Shown here piece by piece: positions 3,056 through 26,455 of a DNA stretch of 34,548 nt. The stretch is from a virus (Duplodnaviria; Heunggongvirae; Uroviricota; Caudoviricetes). Location: IMG/VR virus record IMGVR_UViG_2563366980_000013. One strand, given 5' to 3'. A program made the translations under genes and the position numbers. The notes under the pieces are model-generated. The model was given only the letters and a program-made list of their open reading frames with translations. It did no database searches and was not told the DNA's origin. Within the stretch, counting starts at the first letter, position 1; each line of letters starts with the position of its first letter.

Positions 3056-3393
3056 AGCAGCTCCTGAGTCCGGGTCTGTCCGTCTGAGCCTTTCCAGCTC
3101 ACCCGGAGCGTAAGATGTTCGCCGTCGACGGCGGGTTTAACTGACATAAGCTGGCAGCGGGGCTCCCAGCGCCGGATGGCATCGACGGATTCGCGCACCA
3201 CATGCGGAATGGCCCGGTCTACAGGCCAGTCGATATAAAGATGCAGATTGCTGCCGAACTCCGGGCGATGCGGGTCGCTGCCGCGGGGAGTCCGCAGGAT
3301 AATTTGAATCGCCTGCCGGATATCATCCAGCCCCCGGACAATTTCGCCGGGAGCCTGCAGGGCTGGTTGCCAGAATACTGAGGTCGTTTTCAT
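3046..3393 (-). CDS. Baseplate wedge protein, GPW/gp25-like (Mu gp46)
   Basis: 115-aa ORF; size and position typical of GPW/gp25; overlaps the J-like start. Confidence 0.65.
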   Translation of the reverse strand: MKTTSVFWQPALQAPGEIVRGLDDIRQAIQIILRTPRGSDPHRPEFGSNLHLYIDWPVDRAIPHVVRESVDAIRRWEPRCQLMSVKPAVDGEHLTLRVSWKGSDGQTRTQELLWR

Positions 3394-3447
3394 GGGGGCA
3401 GTATTGCCCCCGTGCGGGAACGCTGATATTAAAGGCGTTTAAGAAGC

Positions 3448-4044
3448 TCAGTGGGAGTGGTGGCTGGAGTTTTCGCCATCAGACAGCATACTGCCCGTGG
3501 CATGGGCATTCCCTTTAATCTCGATATTGCCATGGATGGTCGCGGTAACACCTTTACCACCAGAACCCGCCATGCCTCCTTCGTAAATCAGCTTACCCCT
3601 GACACGCAGATCTCCGGTAAGTTCGGTTTCCGGTGCGTCAATCGTGGCTTTCTGTGTTTTCAATACCACATCAGCACCACACTCAATGACAATATGCTCA
3701 ATGCCGCCCCGGATGGTCAGAGTGTGCGTCTTCCGGTTGTAGCTGTACTCTGCACCATCAGCAAACCGGGTTCCCCGGATATTTTTGTCACTGAACGGTG
3801 GTTTATCGACGTCTGAGTACACCGCGCCCAGAATAACACCATCCTCGCCGTTGGCATCGAGCAGCACCTCAACCTGCTCCCCCACGTCAGGGAGCCAGTA
3901 ATCTTTGTTATCCTGGGTATTGCGCTGCAGCACGTTAAGCCAGTTTGTGCGCAGGTTATCGCATTCAGGCAGACGAACGCGGGCCTGAACCCTGTCGGCA
4001 TCAACGGCACTGACCGTACCGACCTGACGAGTGACACCAGTCAT
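3448..4044 (-). CDS. Baseplate assembly protein V / spike (Mu gp45-like)
   Basis: 198-aa ORF with a Gly-rich C-terminal part; position after the gpD-like gene. Confidence 0.65.
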   Translation of the reverse strand: MTGVTRQVGTVSAVDADRVQARVRLPECDNLRTNWLNVLQRNTQDNKDYWLPDVGEQVEVLLDANGEDGVILGAVYSDVDKPPFSDKNIRGTRFADGAEYSYNRKTHTLTIRGGIEHIVIECGADVVLKTQKATIDAPETELTGDLRVRGKLIYEGGMAGSGGKGVTATIHGNIEIKGNAHATGSMLSDGENSSHHSH

Positions 4045-6279: not shown

Positions 6280-9164
6280 CAGCTGTACTCCTTACGTTGT
6301 TTCTGAGCCAGCAGACGCTCCAGCATTTTTTCCAGCTCATGCAGGCTCATATTCAGGGCACCAGCCAGCCCGGCAGGCGCTGCGGTTTCCTTACCATTGA
6401 GGAAAAACTGAGGATTAAAGCTGACCTGGATACCACCAGACGTTCCACCGCCGGTTGCAGCTGCACCACGGCCTGAATATCCGGCAGCCATGATTTCAGG
6501 CGAGGGGATACGGGGAACATCCGGTGTCATCTCATTTGCCAGACGTTGCCCTGGTAAAATCGATGCCCGGGTGGAGAGCGGGATAGCGGGCATGGAAGAC
6601 AAACTATTGATTACGGCTCCGATCGCATTTTTAGCAGACGACATAAACCCGTTGATATCGGGCAACGGCATACTGAAGCGAACACCTGAAGTGTTATCCC
6701 GTATTTCTGGCCCCTGAATGCTCACGGGCATTTTGGGGAGCAGTTCACTGGCCATTCGCTGCCCGGCCAGAGCTGCAAGCGGAGTGGTCCGCTGCAGGCC
6801 AATGGCGGCCCCCTGCGCGATATTGTCACCAAAGCCCATAAACACGCGGCTCGGCGAATGAATACCCAGCTTTTCACTGAACCAGCCACTGATGCTGTCA
6901 CCCATTCCGGTTACACTGGATTTGAGCGACTCCCATTTGTTTTTGATACCGTTAATCAGACCGTCGACAAGATGGCCACCGAAGTCGGTGAACTTTGCCG
7001 GCAGATCAACACCAAGATATTTCAGCGCAGCTGCAAAGGCTTTATAGAGCAGACCTGCCGGCGACCAGTTAATCAGCAGCTTACCAGTTCCCGCGATACC
7101 GCCGTTAAAGGCTTCCTGAATGTCAGCCCAGCACTGTTTAAACCAGCTACTGATGCTGTCACCCATTCCGGTTACACTGGATTTGAGCGACCCCCATTTG
7201 TTTTTGATACCGTTAATCAGACCGTCGATAAGATGGCCACCGAAGTCGGTGAACTTTGCCGGCAGAGCAACGCCGAAATATTTCAGCGCAGCAGCAAAGG
7301 CTTTATAGAGCAGGCCTGCCGGCGACCAGTTAATCAGCAACTTACCAATTCCCACAATGCCGCCGTTAAAGGCTTCCTGAATGTCTGCCCAGCGCTGTTT
7401 AAACCAGCCACTGACTGCCCACCAGTTGCGGTAGATAAGGTAAGCTGCTGCCGCGACAGCGGTGATAACGAGACCGATGGGATTCATCATCAGCGCACGT
7501 CCAATCCAGAGAACAGCACGTCCGGCGAGCATAATTCCGCGAACCAGCCAGCGGAGCTTACCGCCTTGCCCCAGTGCGAGCGACAGACGAAGCCAGTTGG
7601 CCCGAAGTAAAACAGCATTTTTCCAGACACTTACAAAGGGGGAAATAAGGAGATTCAGCCCCAGTTTGAGACCAACAGTCGCTATCTTAATCGCAAGGAG
7701 CGCACTGATGAGCTTAAAAGCCCCACTGACAAATTGCGGGTGAGTCGCTACCCAGTGTTTTGCCCCCTGAATGAGTGGAAGCAGTTCCTGAGTCAGAGAA
7801 ATAAAAGATGGAGCTAATTGATCGCCCAGCGTAATTGCCAGATCGCGACTGCTGACCATAAGTGTTTTAGTGGCTTCAAGGGGAGATTTCAGCCGCTGAT
7901 CATAAGCACTGGCAAGCAAATCGTTATCCGCAGCCCTGAGAGCACCGGCACGGATCTCTCGATATCTGTCCATGTTGGCCAGCATCGGGCGGATAAATGC
8001 CATGACCTGCATATCCGCGAACATATCGCCCAGACCAAAGTTTTTCGCCAGAGCCTGAAGTGCCTCATCTCTTGCCGTATCATTCTTTATTTTCATGGCG
8101 GATTTGAAGCCGGCCAGCGCTTCGGGGCTTTTGGCATTGAGGTAACGTTCTATAACACTCAACATCCCTTCAATCGGAGAGATCCCCGCAGCTTTATAAC
8201 TCGCAATAGATCCCTGCAAATCAATACCCAGATCAGCAAACTGTTTCTGAGTATCGCGGGCAAAAATTTTGGTAAGAAAGTTTTTAAAATTATTGGCTGC
8301 TTCGTCGGTGGAACCTGCACCGATTTTTGCTATCTGGAGACTGGCCCCGATTTCAGCAACAGCCTCTTTTCCACTGGCAATACCCGCCATCATTGGGGCC
8401 AGGGACTGCATCCACTTGACCTGATCCGGGATTTCAAATGCCCCCTGGTCACCGGCATAAGCCATAATATTCTGAACGGCACCAAAATCTCTGGCCGCAC
8501 CTTTCAGGGAGTTTTGCCAGACTGCGGCCACTTTTGCCCAGTCCTGAGCAGACGTGCGTGTTGCCGTTGCCGCGCGGGCAATATCCGGCATCAGAAAACC
8601 GATATCTGACACATTATCAATATTGTCGCTGATGAGTGAACCCACCGCCTCCTGCAGCTCATCCTGATACTGATTGTATTTAAGCGCCCAGCCTTTTATC
8701 TGTCCGGCAAGTGCATCCCGCGTTTTATTGTCATATTTTGCGGTGATCGACATATCAATCATTTTGTCCTGAAAAGACATGGACTGCTGAACGGCAGGGG
8801 AAACCGTATGATAAACAGTCTGTGCCATGCCATACGCTTCAATCCCCTGACCATACAGCGCCATGCGGTTAGCTTTCAGCGCATCACTGGTAGCGGATGC
8901 CGCTGACAGACGGCGCTGCTGGCGCTCAATTTGCTCCATGGTGCGGCTTACCCGCAGCAGCTCGCTGTTGAGATGCTGCATCCGGGAAGAACCCAGTTGA
9001 CCATAACGTTCTGTTGCACGGGTTAAAGCGTTCTGACGTTCCTGCAGGCGGCGTGAGGTATCGCTCAGGGAATCAAGCGCACGGCGGGTACCGCTCATTG
9101 CAGAACGGAATGTGCTGCCAATCATCCCGCCGATAACAACGCCGACTGAAAACTGTCCCGACAT
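6279..9164 (-). CDS. Tail tape measure protein
   Basis: 961-aa ORF between tail chaperone and baseplate genes; hydrophobic central segment and internal in-frame tandem repeats. Confidence 0.85.
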   Translation of the reverse strand: MSGQFSVGVVIGGMIGSTFRSAMSGTRRALDSLSDTSRRLQERQNALTRATERYGQLGSSRMQHLNSELLRVSRTMEQIERQQRRLSAASATSDALKANRMALYGQGIEAYGMAQTVYHTVSPAVQQSMSFQDKMIDMSITAKYDNKTRDALAGQIKGWALKYNQYQDELQEAVGSLISDNIDNVSDIGFLMPDIARAATATRTSAQDWAKVAAVWQNSLKGAARDFGAVQNIMAYAGDQGAFEIPDQVKWMQSLAPMMAGIASGKEAVAEIGASLQIAKIGAGSTDEAANNFKNFLTKIFARDTQKQFADLGIDLQGSIASYKAAGISPIEGMLSVIERYLNAKSPEALAGFKSAMKIKNDTARDEALQALAKNFGLGDMFADMQVMAFIRPMLANMDRYREIRAGALRAADNDLLASAYDQRLKSPLEATKTLMVSSRDLAITLGDQLAPSFISLTQELLPLIQGAKHWVATHPQFVSGAFKLISALLAIKIATVGLKLGLNLLISPFVSVWKNAVLLRANWLRLSLALGQGGKLRWLVRGIMLAGRAVLWIGRALMMNPIGLVITAVAAAAYLIYRNWWAVSGWFKQRWADIQEAFNGGIVGIGKLLINWSPAGLLYKAFAAALKYFGVALPAKFTDFGGHLIDGLINGIKNKWGSLKSSVTGMGDSISSWFKQCWADIQEAFNGGIAGTGKLLINWSPAGLLYKAFAAALKYLGVDLPAKFTDFGGHLVDGLINGIKNKWESLKSSVTGMGDSISGWFSEKLGIHSPSRVFMGFGDNIAQGAAIGLQRTTPLAALAGQRMASELLPKMPVSIQGPEIRDNTSGVRFSMPLPDINGFMSSAKNAIGAVINSLSSMPAIPLSTRASILPGQRLANEMTPDVPRIPSPEIMAAGYSGRGAAATGGGTSGGIQVSFNPQFFLNGKETAAPAGLAGALNMSLHELEKMLERLLAQKQRKEYS
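6880..7401. repeat. Two tandem ~261-bp (87-codon) in-frame repeats inside the tape measure gene
   Basis: Protein repeats WFKQ(R/C)WADIQEAFNGGI..KSSVTGMGDSIS(S/G) occur twice in succession; DNA copies roughly 90% identical by eye. Boundaries approximate. Confidence 0.8.
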
Positions 9165-21962: not shown

Positions 21963-22681
21963 CAACTGCTGCCTCCCCATGTGAGATATCGCGGTGCCAG
22001 TTCGCGCAGGATGCGCTGCGGATAATGGCGGTTCTCCCGCCAGCTGGCCGCATTGCGTCCGGCATTCACCGTGGCGACATGTCCGAACCAGCGGGTGCTG
22101 TCCAGACCTTTCTGTGATGCAAGCCGCCTGTCCCGTTGTACCCAGCCCAGACCACCGTTATAGCCTGACAGTGTCATGGCCATACGCTCGCAGTCGTTGG
22201 CGGCGCTGACGCGCTGCCACAGCCAGCGGTCATAGCTGACCAGCGCCCGGATGGCCCATGCCGGATTAAACGGCTCACGGCTGTTAAGTCCCGGCATCAG
22301 CTGACTTATCCAGTCGGCAGTGGCAGGCATGAACTGCGCCAGTCCCTGAGCACCAGCCGGCGAGACCGCATCAGGTCGCCAGCCGCTTTCCTGATGCAGT
22401 TGCGCGGCGAAATCTGCCACCGGCGCAGACAGTCCCCATTCAAGCCGGGCATTACGGATCACATCATCGCGATACTGCAGCGCAGCCTGCGGAGGCTGCG
22501 CTGCGCGGGCCTGACTGAAGAAGCCACCACACCAGAGCAGCCAGACAATCACCAGTTTGCCAGCAAGCTGCCACCAGAAGCTGTATTTATCGTTACGTGG
22601 TTCGCCGTGTCTGATGGCGGTTACGCCCAGACCAAAGGCGAACAGAATAATGAGGGTGATTTGAGGCCAGTTCATGGTCAC
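21947..22681 (-). CDS. Endolysin, lytic transglycosylase (SLT domain) with hydrophobic N-terminal region (SAR-like)
   Basis: SLT catalytic motif ..LHQESGWRPDAVSPAGAQGLAQFMP..; N-terminal 60 aa contain two hydrophobic stretches; start overlaps the holin stop (ATGA). Confidence 0.7.
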   Translation of the reverse strand: MTMNWPQITLIILFAFGLGVTAIRHGEPRNDKYSFWWQLAGKLVIVWLLWCGGFFSQARAAQPPQAALQYRDDVIRNARLEWGLSAPVADFAAQLHQESGWRPDAVSPAGAQGLAQFMPATADWISQLMPGLNSREPFNPAWAIRALVSYDRWLWQRVSAANDCERMAMTLSGYNGGLGWVQRDRRLASQKGLDSTRWFGHVATVNAGRNAASWRENRHYPQRILRELAPRYLTWGGSSCVASG

Positions 22682-23028
22682 AGTCCTGTTGCCACAGCCA
22701 GACAGACCGCTGCAACAATCAGTGCACGGCGGATTAACGCAGCAGAAAATACAAGGTGAAGGCCGGTCTGCACAGGGAAACGCCCTTCAGCCATCAGCCT
22801 GTCTTCATGTTTCAGGTACTGACCGGGACGGGCTTTGGGGAAGAGCGAACGGTCAAGCCAGTAACCCAGCACTGCTGCCAGCGTGATGAGTGCCAGCTTG
22901 TAGATCACAACAGGCAACTGCTGTGGCGAGACCAGAGCGATGGTGCCCAGCAACAGCACTGAGGTCAGCAGCCAGCCGCTGAGGCGAGGTTTTTTAACAG
23001 GGGGAATGAATTTTTTCAGGCTTTTCAT
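22678..23028 (-). CDS. Putative holin
   Basis: Small membrane protein with 2-3 predicted TM helices immediately upstream of the endolysin; start taken at the internal ATG (MKSLKKF..); the track ORF extends to 23061. Confidence 0.55.
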   Translation of the reverse strand: MKSLKKFIPPVKKPRLSGWLLTSVLLLGTIALVSPQQLPVVIYKLALITLAAVLGYWLDRSLFPKARPGQYLKHEDRLMAEGRFPVQTGLHLVFSAALIRRALIVAAVCLAVATGL

Positions 23029-23061
23029 GTGTGTCTCCTTGTTTGGTGGAGACAGCATCAC

Positions 23062-23158
23062 AAATGTGGCGGGATACGGATTTTAAAGCGCGTTATAAGT
23101 GTTCGCAGAGGGAAGCGACCAGAATGGTCGCACACAAAACATAGGGGAGGCAAGCACA
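23062..23158. promoter_or_regulatory. Divergent intergenic region upstream of the late operon, containing a 17-bp dyad (gcgacca gaa tggtcgc, approx. 23115-23131)
   Basis: Perfect 7-bp inverted repeat with 3-bp spacer located between the holin start and the divergent + strand gene; candidate late-activator or operator site. Confidence 0.35.
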
Positions 23159-23482
23159 ATGACTGAACCGAAACAGTCTGGTATTAAAAAAGGGTTCCTC
23201 TTTGGGAGCAGAATCGGAGAGCAGAATAAAACTTACACGCTAAGCTTGGATGCATGTTGTCCAACCGAAGCGATTATAGAGCTGAAAAACGTTCTGGTTG
23301 CACTTGAAGAGAGAAGAAGTCATTTCGCCAGCGGAGAAAACAACGTCATGCTAATTGGCGATGTGGCGGCGACATCACGATATAAAACCGCACCTAATCC
23401 TGCGATTCAGTTATCCTTCGACCAACGAATACTGGAAGCGGAATCAGCAGTTCCCAGAACGGTTCGTCCTCACCAGTCTTAA
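23159..23482 (+). CDS. Hypothetical protein (accessory)
   Basis: 107 aa from ATG with good RBS (AGGGGAGG, 8-nt spacing); no recognised family; 3' end overlaps the convergent gene 23394..23969. Confidence 0.45.
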   Translation: MTEPKQSGIKKGFLFGSRIGEQNKTYTLSLDACCPTEAIIELKNVLVALEERRSHFASGENNVMLIGDVAATSRYKTAPNPAIQLSFDQRILEAESAVPRTVRPHQS

Positions 23483-23969
23483 CTGGGGCTGCTTCACCCG
23501 ACCAGTAAAGCCAAGCACGGTGATACAGTTCCAGCACCGGGCAATCACTGTTCAATAACCTCATATCTCCGCGATGCACCTGCTCATTTGTGATGACTTC
23601 ATATATCGGTGCCGTTCTTATTTCGTCTTCGCCTCTCTCATCAGCCAGTAATTCCCTGAACTTCCTGACTTCACTCAGATGCTGACAGGCAAACAGTGAC
23701 TGATAGCGGGAAGGTTTATCAGGAAAATGGCTACGGCGAACTAACTCAAACACCAGACCGACCAGCAGACTTCTGCTGATTCCACTGTCATCTTCCATTT
23801 TAGGGCCGGGGTTATAGAGATAGTTATACCCGTGACTCGAAAGGCCATTGGGATACATCTGATGAAGAAAAGCGGCCAGTTCTGGCATTTCAGGCTCGTA
23901 TTTTCCGGTAATTACATGACAAGGCGAAGGCAGACGACTAGCGGAATCAAGTGTGTAATACGTTCCCAT
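23394..23969 (-). CDS. Hypothetical protein (accessory)
   Basis: 191-aa ORF; intermediate GC; no recognised family. Confidence 0.5.
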   Translation of the reverse strand: MGTYYTLDSASRLPSPCHVITGKYEPEMPELAAFLHQMYPNGLSSHGYNYLYNPGPKMEDDSGISRSLLVGLVFELVRRSHFPDKPSRYQSLFACQHLSEVRKFRELLADERGEDEIRTAPIYEVITNEQVHRGDMRLLNSDCPVLELYHRAWLYWSGEAAPVKTGEDEPFWELLIPLPVFVGRRITESQD

Positions 23970-24378
23970 TCAGAAAACAATCCTTATCGAACAAACACTG
24001 CACGTAGGTAATGCATCCAGTAAATCGCGTTAATAGAAATCATGTATCTCAAAACTTCACTCTGAACTCTGACAGTGAAAGAACGACCAGCCCGGTACCC
24101 GAACTCCAGGCTGGTCATCGCCCCACAGGAATGCACTGTGAGCCGACCGAGGTTCAGTCAGTCTCGCGAGACCAGACTAGCCTGCCATATTTTTTATAAT
24201 TATAAAAGGGTTACAGATTATGAAAATGCAGACATTCCCCATCGCTCCATGGATTGGTTGTAAACGCCGCCATGCCAGACATATTCTGGCCGATGTTTCC
24301 TAGCACGCACGAATATGAGGCAACTGACGAGAATAAATGATGCGTCAGAATGAACCGTCGACACCGTGCTTTCAGGTT

Positions 24379-24990
24379 TCAAAAATCTGGAGAAGGTATA
24401 TCTATCTGACCGACGTTTCGTAACCACATCTCTTGCTTTGTTTCTTTATTGGTTCGGGCGATATCATTAGCATTGTATCTGCATGTTTTAACCGCAACCT
24501 CACGAACTCGTGCTATAGGAGTATTTGTGTAGAATTTAAGATCTTCCTCTACCGCTCGTATGGCGATAAGCCCTCCACTCTGAAAACCGCTGGTTACTTT
24601 TAAAAGATCAACTCCTTGGTTATAAACGGCATTACATACGTTAGGGAACTCATCTTCTACAGTTTTGGGGATCATCAGCATATCAGGAAGACCCTGTAAC
24701 ACGTTATCTTCCTTTGGCCTCCATGCCCTTCCCAAAAAAGCTGTTATAGGTTGTGGTGTAGAAAGAAATGCCAATTCTATATAAAACAAACCACTGTAGT
24801 GATCGCGTAACGAATAGACTAGTAAATGATCTTTTCCAGTTTTACTTGCATTGCTAAGTTTTATATCAAATGGTTTTTTCTGGTACTTAAGCAATCCATC
24901 AACTCCCGCATAATAATGCTTTGAAACAGCAACAGAAAGTTGATGTACTTGGTTCGGATAATCTGTTCTATATCGTTTAATTAGCCCCAT
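24379..24990 (-). CDS. Hypothetical soluble protein, second gene of the repressor-linked cargo pair
   Basis: 203-aa ORF in clearly AT-rich DNA relative to the phage backbone; 20 nt downstream of the membrane-protein gene on the same strand. Confidence 0.6.
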   Translation of the reverse strand: MGLIKRYRTDYPNQVHQLSVAVSKHYYAGVDGLLKYQKKPFDIKLSNASKTGKDHLLVYSLRDHYSGLFYIELAFLSTPQPITAFLGRAWRPKEDNVLQGLPDMLMIPKTVEDEFPNVCNAVYNQGVDLLKVTSGFQSGGLIAIRAVEEDLKFYTNTPIARVREVAVKTCRYNANDIARTNKETKQEMWLRNVGQIDIPSPDF

Positions 24991-25010
24991 AATAGCCTCG
25001 CAGTTATTTT

Positions 25011-25997
25011 CTATTTCAAAATATAACGATATTTACTATCTGGAGTGTTTTGTTGGTCAAGTAATAGAGCTCTACATGGGGCGGTCAAAACACGGGCATA
25101 ACGACCATCGGGGTTTATGTTGATGTAACAAGTTTTCCCTTTAACACCATAAGATTCAGGTATTATTGCCTGTGTAGACACCGTGAATTTAAGGGTATGC
25201 CAGCCCGATTTTTGCTTGTAGCTTGAAACCGAATGGAAATCATCTGAGTACTTATTTAACCCTGGAAACATGCTGCGTAATGCTGGGATGGAATCTTCTA
25301 TTATTTTGTCGTTGGTTTTAATGTTAAAAACGCTGGTTTCAGTAGATGCTACTGCTTTAGCATTTCCCCATTTACCAGCGAACACAATCATTCCCACGAA
25401 AAATATTGCGACAAGAACTAACGCTCCCCCCAACACTACTACATGAGGCTTCCGGCTTCTGGTTGGTACAGTCGCGACTGATTTTGCCCCGCTGTCCGAT
25501 GGAGGTGATAGAGTTTTACTCTCATCACGAATATTCAGCAGATCATCAAAATAACCAAACACAGCCTGCAACTGCTCTTTGTCCAGGCCTTTAAGATGGG
25601 TTGTACCGAAATGCTTCAGACAGTATCTGTCACGGTCAAGACGATACCTAGGGTCAGTAAGCACCATTATTTTGCTGACCAGAAGATTACAGTCCTTCAT
25701 ATTCTGGATCTGTTGTGCATATCTCTGGAGGATCTCAACCGCACCATGATAATCAGCCGCAGTCATTTCATTAACTGTTTTGGTATTAAGTTTCGTGTGG
25801 ATCGTCATCCATAGTTCGCGCTTACTTTCCCCCAGATCAACCAATTCATCCATCAATCTGTGTAAATCGCGTTTTTGCAGCAACGAAATTGGTTGCTGGG
25901 CAGAGGGAAGTATGTCAGCAGAATAGTTATGAATGGTAACATCACCGCTGACAACGTTACCCACATCTCCGTTAACTGTTTGCTTCTCTTTACTCAT
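25011..25997 (-). CDS. Hypothetical single-pass membrane protein, first gene of the repressor-linked cargo pair
   Basis: 328 aa; N-terminal ~185-aa soluble domain, one TM helix (HVVVLGGALVLVAIFFVGMIVFAG), C-terminal ~115-aa domain; start overlaps the repressor stop (ATGA); AT-rich. Confidence 0.6.
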   Translation of the reverse strand: MSKEKQTVNGDVGNVVSGDVTIHNYSADILPSAQQPISLLQKRDLHRLMDELVDLGESKRELWMTIHTKLNTKTVNEMTAADYHGAVEILQRYAQQIQNMKDCNLLVSKIMVLTDPRYRLDRDRYCLKHFGTTHLKGLDKEQLQAVFGYFDDLLNIRDESKTLSPPSDSGAKSVATVPTRSRKPHVVVLGGALVLVAIFFVGMIVFAGKWGNAKAVASTETSVFNIKTNDKIIEDSIPALRSMFPGLNKYSDDFHSVSSYKQKSGWHTLKFTVSTQAIIPESYGVKGKTCYININPDGRYARVLTAPCRALLLDQQNTPDSKYRYILK

Positions 25998-26455
25998 TTT
26001 CTCTTTGTATTTTTGTTCATTATTCCACCTGTTCCTATGGTTACGTTACCTTTGATAACATTCCCCAGAACATCTCCATGAATAACCTGTTCCGCCCGTT
26101 CTCTGGAGGAGCCAGTCGTCAATGCCGACAAAACTGAACCTTTGACTTGTAACGGTGCTTGCCGGTAGTGCTGAAGTAACTCCATTTCATCACGTGATAA
26201 AGTTATACCTGATGATTCCCCAGTAAGAATGAACTGTACGTTGGCCCCAATTCTTGCAAAGGCTGCAAGTAACTCACCTCCGGGAACTGCAACCCCTCGT
26301 TCATATTTCCCCCACATTTCTCTTGAAACGCCACAAAGGGCTGCTACTTCAGCCTGCTTGAGTGATAACCGCGAACGCTCAGCTTTGAACCGCGACGCGC
26401 AAAGAGAATCAAAATTCACATAAACCTCATTGACAATGAGAACAATAGTTCTCAT
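25994..26455 (-). CDS. HTH (XRE/Cro-C1-type) transcriptional regulator, putative prophage repressor
   Basis: HTH region ..LSLKQAEVAALCGVSREMWGKYERG..; divergent from the Ner-like early gene across a 50-bp intergenic region; true start may be an internal GTG/ATG. Confidence 0.65.
   Translation of the reverse strand: MRTIVLIVNEVYVNFDSLCASRFKAERSRLSLKQAEVAALCGVSREMWGKYERGVAVPGGELLAAFARIGANVQFILTGESSGITLSRDEMELLQHYRQAPLQVKGSVLSALTTGSSRERAEQVIHGDVLGNVIKGNVTIGTGGIMNKNTKRK

Follow-up and report, generated by a model that had tools for sequence, protein, structure and literature searches.

What is the function of two genes that meet tail to tail in the middle of a prophage, and do they belong together? 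This question is raised by positions 23159-23969 of the IMG/VR virus record IMGVR_UViG_2563366980_000013 (Caudoviricetes), whose whole stretch of 34,548 nucleotides is called the window here. Our analysis describes the two genes as a candidate effector/partner moron, in which a known domain without a known function, DUF2441, is combined with an unannotated new family of small proteins, represented by ORF107. An earlier note, written from the sequence alone, had reported a 107-amino-acid (aa) plus-strand open reading frame (ORF) with a strong ribosome-binding site, a 191-aa minus-strand ORF and a convergent 3' overlap of about 89 bp between them, all of which we confirm:

23159..23482, plus strand: small protein gene ORF107, with an ATG start, 107 aa
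23144..23150, plus strand: ribosome-binding site GGGGAGG of ORF107, ending 8 nt before the ATG and identical in all close relatives
23394..23969, minus strand: gene of a DUF2441 / BC2332-like protein of 191 aa with a predicted ADP-ribosyltransferase-superfamily fold
23394..23482, unstranded: coding overlap of both genes at their 3' ends, 89 bp as taken from the ORF coordinates

The same note had seen no recognisable family in either protein, which is wrong for the 191-aa one. This protein matches DUF2441 of Pfam (PF10386) with 31.8 bits at a cut-off of 25, its residues 71-158 aligning to positions 56-141 of the 141 in the hidden Markov model (HMM), and it matches phrog_5663 over its full length (E 2e-65). 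The name assigned by PGAP agrees with DUF2441, and a PF10386 match is precomputed on all of its homologues (27/27). An AlphaFold2 (AF2) model employing 25 homologues is confident (pLDDT 89.4) and has the same fold as BC2332 of Bacillus cereus (PDB 2AUA); the split β-sheet core of ADP-ribosyltransferases is recognisable in it by structure comparison. DUF2441 belongs to the ADP-ribosyltransferase (ART) clan of Pfam (PMC7955679), and in SCOP 'BC2332-like' is one of the family codes for ADP-ribosyltransferases, d.166.1.6 (PMC3000352). Moreover, in a structural-genomics analysis the active-site template of 2AUA matched diphtheria toxin, exotoxin A and cholix toxin (PMC3024214). Membership of the 191-aa protein in the ADP-ribosyltransferase superfamily is supported by the modelled fold together with these curated classifications.

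A closer inspection of the putative active site shows that H46-G47, F93-A94 and E173 are invariant in the 25 homologues of the phage subfamily, and that F93 aligns with a tyrosine of BC2332. On this basis we tentatively assign H46, F93 and E173 to an NAD+ site of the H-Y-E type. The protein probably uses NAD+ to modify a target in the host or the phage. BC2332, the founding structure of PF10386, differs from the phage protein in length (224 aa vs 191 aa), is only 20% identical to it and carries Tyr in the L-[YF]-A strand where the phage protein carries Phe. As BC2332 has no known function, the match provides a fold and a predicted chemistry and no role. A full-text literature search of the DUF2441 name returned few mentions, none with a function, and a search of a viral structure library matched only uncharacterised phage proteins, e.g. 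one of Gordonia phage JuJu.

ORF107, by comparison with Pfam, PHROG, NCBIfam and PADLOC, has no match in any of them (NCBIfam has none for the DUF2441 protein either), and the profile of its family reaches a best E of 0.07 against the PDB. Among 1.84 billion representative proteins, the profile of the small family found only 19 clusters, and PGAP annotates ORF107 in a single one of the 33 Escherichia coli genomes that carry it (730V1, WP_024160641.1). Its homologues form 16 clusters with identities down to 46%. They share a core of residues ~10-76 (GFLFG..YTLSV..EAI.ELKNAL.ALE..HFAxGENNxMxIGxVAATSRYK), and residues ~79-107 are a read-through tail that is not conserved. Proteins of 70-110 aa contain the core alone, proteins of 230-243 aa carry it at the C-terminus and others at the N-terminus; a Pfam scan of the longer proteins gave no informative domains. 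Judging from these three placements, the core is therefore a genuine, mobile and undescribed domain.

Is ORF107 translated, or could it be a chance frame opposite a real gene? Its frame is open in every homologous locus examined, and its indels, among them a 4-codon deletion and others of 1 to 3 codons, are all in frame. Across the 78 non-overlapping codons, comparison with the homologues from Pantoea and the Plautia symbiont (loci L007 and L011) gave a pS of 0.63-0.71 and a pN of 0.19-0.25. The resulting dN/dS of 0.10-0.20 equals that of DUF2441 in the same pairs, which points to purifying selection. Among close relatives (~90% identical), dN/dS is about 0.5-0.58 for ORF107 vs about 0.1 for DUF2441; the small gene is thus the faster-evolving partner. 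At this short distance the ratio does not set the ORF107 frame apart from two others, and only the distant homologues were informative. As judged from frame conservation and selection, ORF107 is coding and not a chance antisense ORF. The suspicion that one of the two ORFs may be mis-called is therefore not borne out: across related prophages both frames, rather than only one, are conserved.

An AF2 model of ORF107 has a pLDDT of 54 and reaches moderate confidence only in a β-hairpin and a helix (residues 12-51), while it gives no reliable structure for the most conserved stretch, HFAxGENNxMxIGxVAATSRYK. A hairpin and helix followed by a conserved stretch that is unstructured on its own is the pattern that would be expected of a segment folding on a partner. 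In this respect the predicted architecture resembles that of partner-folding proteins, as many antitoxins are.

To which partner this might be is suggested by gene context. HMMs of the small family and of DUF2441 were run on all fetched loci (numbered with an L), and wherever both genes occur they are convergent. The pair occupies three settings. The first is the slot between the holin and dam genes of Bcepmuvirus prophages (the window, L002-L006, L008-L010, L018 and L029/30), with hosts from E. coli, Klebsiella, Buttiauxella, Apirhabdus, Erwinia, Intestinirhabdus, Pseudocitrobacter and Pantoea. The second is the end of the early operon, directly 3' of Mor (L007 from a Pantoea metagenome-assembled genome and L011 from the Plautia symbiont). 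The third is found in lambdoid prophages from Citrobacter, Klebsiella and Sodalis (L012, L013 and L014), where the pair directly follows a Q antiterminator gene from one of two Pfam families; the DUF2441 proteins of L013 and L014 are only 35-40% identical to that of the window. In a Salmonella prophage, the small domain forms the C-terminus of a 243-aa protein that is again convergent to DUF2441. Furthermore, 33 of 5426 complete E. coli genomes contain the pair, always with both genes, and 636 genomes match part of the wider query 22600..24400, which includes lysis genes. As detected by these profiles, the pair co-occurs in several unrelated prophage settings.

In the window, the pair forms a discrete unit bounded by a repeated motif:

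23102..24075, unstranded: two-gene cassette with approximate boundaries, present or absent as an indel when compared with related Bcepmuvirus genomes (blastn against related loci)
23084..23099, plus strand: left copy of a 16-nt motif, TAAAGCGCGTTATAAG, between the holin gene and the small gene
24021..24036, plus strand: right copy of the 16-nt motif, TAAATCGCGTTAATAG, starting 52 nt upstream of the DUF2441 start codon

The window, Phi06_2974 B and PhiKM have the flanks 22000-23101 and 24076-24300 in common. In place of 23102..24075, Phi06_2974 B has about 30 bp and PhiKM has 1.4 kb of other genes. The cassette has a GC content of 0.46-0.52, compared with 0.56-0.60 in the late operon. The pair is thus a mobile accessory, moron-like cassette by its presence or absence between collinear phages and its atypical composition, and the earlier description of an accessory unit at the edge of a cargo region is borne out by this polymorphism.

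The 16-nt motif, TAAANMRCRTTAWNAG, flanks the cassette as a direct repeat. Exact matches to TAAANCGCGTTAWNAG number just two in the 34.5 kb, and allowing up to 2 mismatches gives three vs 0.21 expected. The motif flanks most other cassettes of the slot, one or both copies being absent from L005, L006, L019-21 and L023/24/28, and the empty site has one copy. It lies at 3394 in L016, 2415 and 3817 in L017, 4950 and 5968 in L008, 3925 and 5202 in L022, and 2940 and 3895 in L029. The copies in the window are located ~50-60 nt upstream of start codons, namely those of the holin gene, the small gene and DUF2441. The motif is either a cassette-exchange (recombination) site or a duplicated regulatory, promoter or operator element of the divergent holin/dam region.

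Every slot cassette seen is a convergent pair (2490-3598 in L017, which is PhiKM; 4001-5184 in L022; 4001-5031 in L019; 4001-5308 in L023). The plus-strand gene is a mosaic, with N-terminal modules common between cassettes, and the minus-strand gene varies, being DUF2441 or an unrelated gene of 134, 162 or 258 aa. The 258-aa partner in L019 was considered as a hidden DUF2441, which hhalign ruled out (probability 0.2%). The 134-aa minus-strand ORF of PhiKM (3194-3598), unannotated in GenBank, overlaps the end of a 242-aa gene by 25 nt.

The overlap of the two coding regions is less constant than their orientation. In homologous pairs it measures 107, 89, 80, 77, 11, 10 or 7 nt, or is replaced by gaps of 9 or 20 nt, and many members of the small family stop a few residues past the ...ATSRYK core, short of DUF2441. 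Thus, the tail-to-tail orientation is conserved and the overlap is not. The 89-bp overlap of the window is incidental: the frame of the small gene meets no stop codon before it has run into the end of the neighbouring gene. Its 12 variable sites, a small sample, fall on plus-strand codon positions 1/2/3 as 6/5/1 (minus-strand positions 1/3/2), so that the plus frame shows no wobble-position excess of its own there. A promoter and terminator scan found no terminator-like site inside the 89 bp. The earlier note had taken the overlap to imply mutual antisense interference; given overlaps that vary from 107 nt to a 20-nt gap, family members that end early and a plus frame that is unconstrained in this stretch, overlapping ORFs do not imply it. 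Antisense or transcriptional interference between the pair is possible. Nor does the pair fit a type I toxin-antitoxin or antisense-RNA pair, as the ORF overlap is not conserved and neither protein is a small hydrophobic peptide.

When might the two genes be expressed? In the window, a consensus scan gave no sigma-70-like promoter next to either start, with counts not above those of shuffled sequence, and its sole site near the pair was a weak terminator-like one at 23178-23161 (minus strand). An Rfam scan of 22800-24500 returned only a sub-threshold match to an archaeal snoRNA, which we take as chance. An inverted repeat, GCGACC-N5-GGTCGC at 23116-23132, was tried as an activator site and dropped, as it is not kept in 90%-identical relatives.

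The other settings are more telling. In L012, a strong terminator with an 11-bp stem (2154-2129, minus strand) lies downstream of Q and immediately upstream of the small gene, and in L013 a terminator-like hairpin 3' of Q (about 6755-6785, minus strand) is followed directly by the small gene. Q-dependent late genes stand in this position, behind a terminator 3' of Q, as does stx in Stx phages. The distance from the Mor stop codon to the start of the small gene is 10-40 nt in L007 and L011. We infer that the small gene is expressed during lytic growth, because it stands directly behind Mor or Q in two of the three settings and because the enzyme gene of the lambdoid loci runs against the late transcript. 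Distant DUF2441 homologues of Gordonia and Streptococcus phages are located in the lysogeny region. Furthermore, a differential-expression list includes the DUF2441 gene STM14_RS06850 of Salmonella Typhimurium 14028S among non-induced cultures (PMC9867438); as far as this listing goes, it hints that at least one DUF2441 homologue is transcribed in the lysogenic state.

How might such a pair work? The reading that we favour, tentatively and at slightly less than an even chance, is that of an enzyme-like effector restrained by a small cognate partner, which is made in lytic growth. The DUF2441 enzyme would be made in the lysogen and act there, e.g. in defence or in a host-modifying function. The small protein, as its cognate partner, would restrain or neutralise the enzyme and, being produced in lytic growth, would shut it off when its own prophage goes lytic. 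The tail-to-tail arrangement would make expression reciprocal, with head-on transcription helping to shut the enzyme down. We read the small protein as a cognate regulator because its N-terminal module is common, whereas the conserved C-terminal segment occurs where DUF2441 adjoins. Catalytic activity, physical interaction of the two proteins, inhibition as its direction and the timing of expression are elements that we infer.

A more specific version of this reading is unlikely. In it, the pair would represent a new prophage module, in which a lysogen-made effector of ADP-ribosyltransferase fold would act against other phages or modify the host, and the convergent small protein would shut it off once the prophage goes lytic. 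The switch-off would combine binding of the enzyme with head-on transcription, the small gene being placed behind the phage's own late regulator. As part of the same version, the holin-dam slot would be a hotspot where 'effector plus convergent partner' cassettes are exchanged at the 16-nt repeat.

Several observations weigh against the effector and restraining partner. The two genes are linked by gene context and sequence rather than by experiment or complex prediction, and neither protein has a match in PADLOC-DB v2 at E 0.1 or better. Neither window gene has a confident promoter in the consensus scan, and the small gene of the window is divergent from the lysis operon and stands outside a known lytic transcription unit. 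The close-relative dN/dS of ORF107 (about 0.5) is no different from that of two other frames. An 83-aa member of the small family in Enterobacter (L019-21) faces the unrelated 258-aa gene, and a 232-aa protein in L022, which has only its first 52 residues in common, faces the unrelated 162-aa gene. DUF2441 stands without a partner in L025, in L027, in Gordonia phage JuJu and in the Streptococcus prophage Javan146. Finally, in Pantoea stewartii (L010, 6693-9348) an element of the IS66 family splits the small gene beside an intact DUF2441.

Part of this evidence favours the view that the two genes are independent neighbours, with the small gene marking the edges of cargo slots by late regulators, DUF2441 being one of several morons found there, and co-occurrence reflecting linkage and not a common function. 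Small-family members that face unrelated convergent genes, DUF2441 homologues without a partner, the tolerated disruption of the small gene in L010 and the convergent, mosaic build of every cassette seen in the Bcepmuvirus slot all agree with it. We nevertheless consider this view unlikely. The pairing recurs in three unrelated settings while DUF2441 diverges down to 35% identity, and all 33 E. coli genomes with one gene have both. Moreover, a domain that has the well-conserved HFAxGE..ATS half is partnered by DUF2441, even when fused to another protein.

The decay of the pair bears on whether it is a classical type II toxin-antitoxin system, in which DUF2441 would be a growth-arresting ADP-ribosylating toxin and the small protein its labile, always co-expressed, toxin-binding and autoregulating antitoxin. 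Three decaying genomes have a broken DUF2441 and an intact small gene, as such a system might leave behind: in Erwinia tracheiphila (L006, 6466-7675) a ~1.2-kb insertion, probably an insertion sequence, splits DUF2441, and in two genomes of insect symbionts (L011 and L014) DUF2441 is frameshifted. The modular build of the small partner, with a common N-terminal part and a partner-specific C-terminal part, also fits. However, the ratio of three broken DUF2441 genes to one broken small gene is what gene length alone predicts, and we rejected it as a toxin-antitoxin asymmetry. The opposite case of L010, with its intact DUF2441 beside a split small gene, argues against a strictly lethal toxin in need of an antidote. 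The genes are convergent and not an operon in every locus, the partner belongs to no known antitoxin family and has no DNA-binding domain, and expression of the small gene behind Mor or Q appears to be confined to lytic growth. We therefore regard a type II system as improbable. The earlier, broader suggestion of a toxin/antitoxin-like or anti-defence moron agrees with the ADP-ribosyltransferase-type fold of the enzyme and with the tight co-occurrence of both genes.

The small protein could instead be a positive partner, i.e., an activator, adaptor, chaperone or substrate, in a pair that modifies host machinery in lytic growth in the manner of Alt, ModA and ModB of phage T4. Its placement behind late regulators fits, and the ~50-60 nt between each window gene and a motif that also precedes the lysis operon could reflect common late control. 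In the lambdoid prophages, however, DUF2441 is antisense to the late transcript and its expression should fall when the small gene is on; nothing points to packaging or to a late promoter. This arrangement seems to us distinctly improbable.

That the plus-strand ORF is merely a gene-calling artefact in chance antisense or intergenic sequence, with DUF2441 alone being real, is hardly credible and refuted as far as sequence evidence reaches: the absent PGAP annotation in 32 of 33 E. coli genomes, the lack of a family-model match, the poor AF2 model and a close-relative dN/dS like that of two non-coding frames are outweighed by a frame that is uninterrupted in every homologue and whose indels are all in frame, the low dN/dS at larger distance, the conserved ribosome-binding site and the recurrence of the domain in unrelated genomic surroundings and in fusion with other proteins.

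With regard to the wider setting of the pair, the chromosomes of E. coli SF-088 and of other human and mouse isolates contain a prophage that matches the window with 100% identity. Its late genes are on the minus strand, with the lysis cassette first (a PF13272 holin, an SLT endolysin and an Rz-like spanin), and its early genes are on the plus strand (an IclR-like helix-turn-helix (HTH) protein, DUF3102, a DDE transposase, an AAA+ B-like protein, Gam, GemA and Mor). The related isolate PhiKM is classified as Bcepmuvirus, and we therefore read the window as a transposable prophage of E. coli that is BcepMu-like and whose early and late arms diverge. The gene pair sits centrally between these arms, with the lysis and late operon on one side, where the holin gene starts at ~23028-23061 (minus strand), and an AT-rich block on the other. 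Across this central region the GC content drops from about 0.59 to 0.40-0.47.

The AT-rich cargo (24379-26455, minus strand) consists of two genes whose functions are not known, encoding a 203-aa protein without a family and a 328-aa protein that matches phrog_10002 and has a weak, sub-threshold N-terminal match to Flk. Neither has a PADLOC match. The cargo genes are arranged head to tail with the gene of an HTH repressor, with a stop/start overlap at 25994-25997; owing to this packing they are probably co-transcribed with it in the lysogen. At 24220-24300 (plus strand) lies the 5' remnant of a DNA adenine methylase gene, 27 codons long (MKMQTFPIAPWIGCKRRHARHILADVS); the gene is whole at the same position in KP12, CFSAN051542 and PhiKM, and truncated in the window, which has the AT-rich cargo instead. 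The conserved right flank of the cassette contains a hairpin at 24085-24116 with arms of 11 nt (GACCAGCCCGG and CCAGGCTGGTC), also present in Phi06_2974 B and PhiKM. This hairpin is terminator-like on the minus strand and would stop a transcript of the repressor and cargo genes before DUF2441. At the left end of the window (~400-2000), an apparent direct duplication of ~979 bp contains twin 196-aa minus-strand ORFs (402-992 and 1381-1971) and matching plus-strand ORFs, which may be tail-fibre or assembly genes.

The structure of a DUF2441 protein has been solved since 2005 and its active site is predicted to be toxin-like, while a role has so far been lacking. With its conserved partner gene and within a defined mobile cassette, this orphan fold becomes a two-gene system that can be tested. 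The pair could be a new ADP-ribosylating module of defence, toxin-antitoxin-like action or host takeover in prophages of E. coli, Salmonella, Klebsiella and relatives, one half of which standard annotation nearly always misses. Beyond the pair itself, the 16-nt motif suggests a recombination or regulatory element that bounds a cargo slot in BcepMu-like prophages.

Among known systems, the pair would by analogy work most like the toxin-antitoxin and defence modules with an ADP-ribosyltransferase fold, namely DarT-DarG, ParT-ParS, MbcT-MbcA and Res-Xre. Those modules are co-transcribed, whereas the present genes are convergent. Unlike the partners in those modules, the small protein shows no similarity to macrodomain, Xre, ParS or MbcA proteins, and, again unlike them, one genome retains an intact enzyme gene beside a disrupted partner. 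T4 Alt, ModA and ModB as well as AcrIF11 have no sequence-level relationship to DUF2441 and act alone, without a convergent small gene. The closest parallel in functional reasoning, and in that only, is BstA, which is not known to be related in sequence and whose immunity element aba is DNA and not protein. Together they form a prophage defence that is active in the lysogen and silenced when its own prophage replicates, the same logic as that proposed here for DUF2441 and its small partner.

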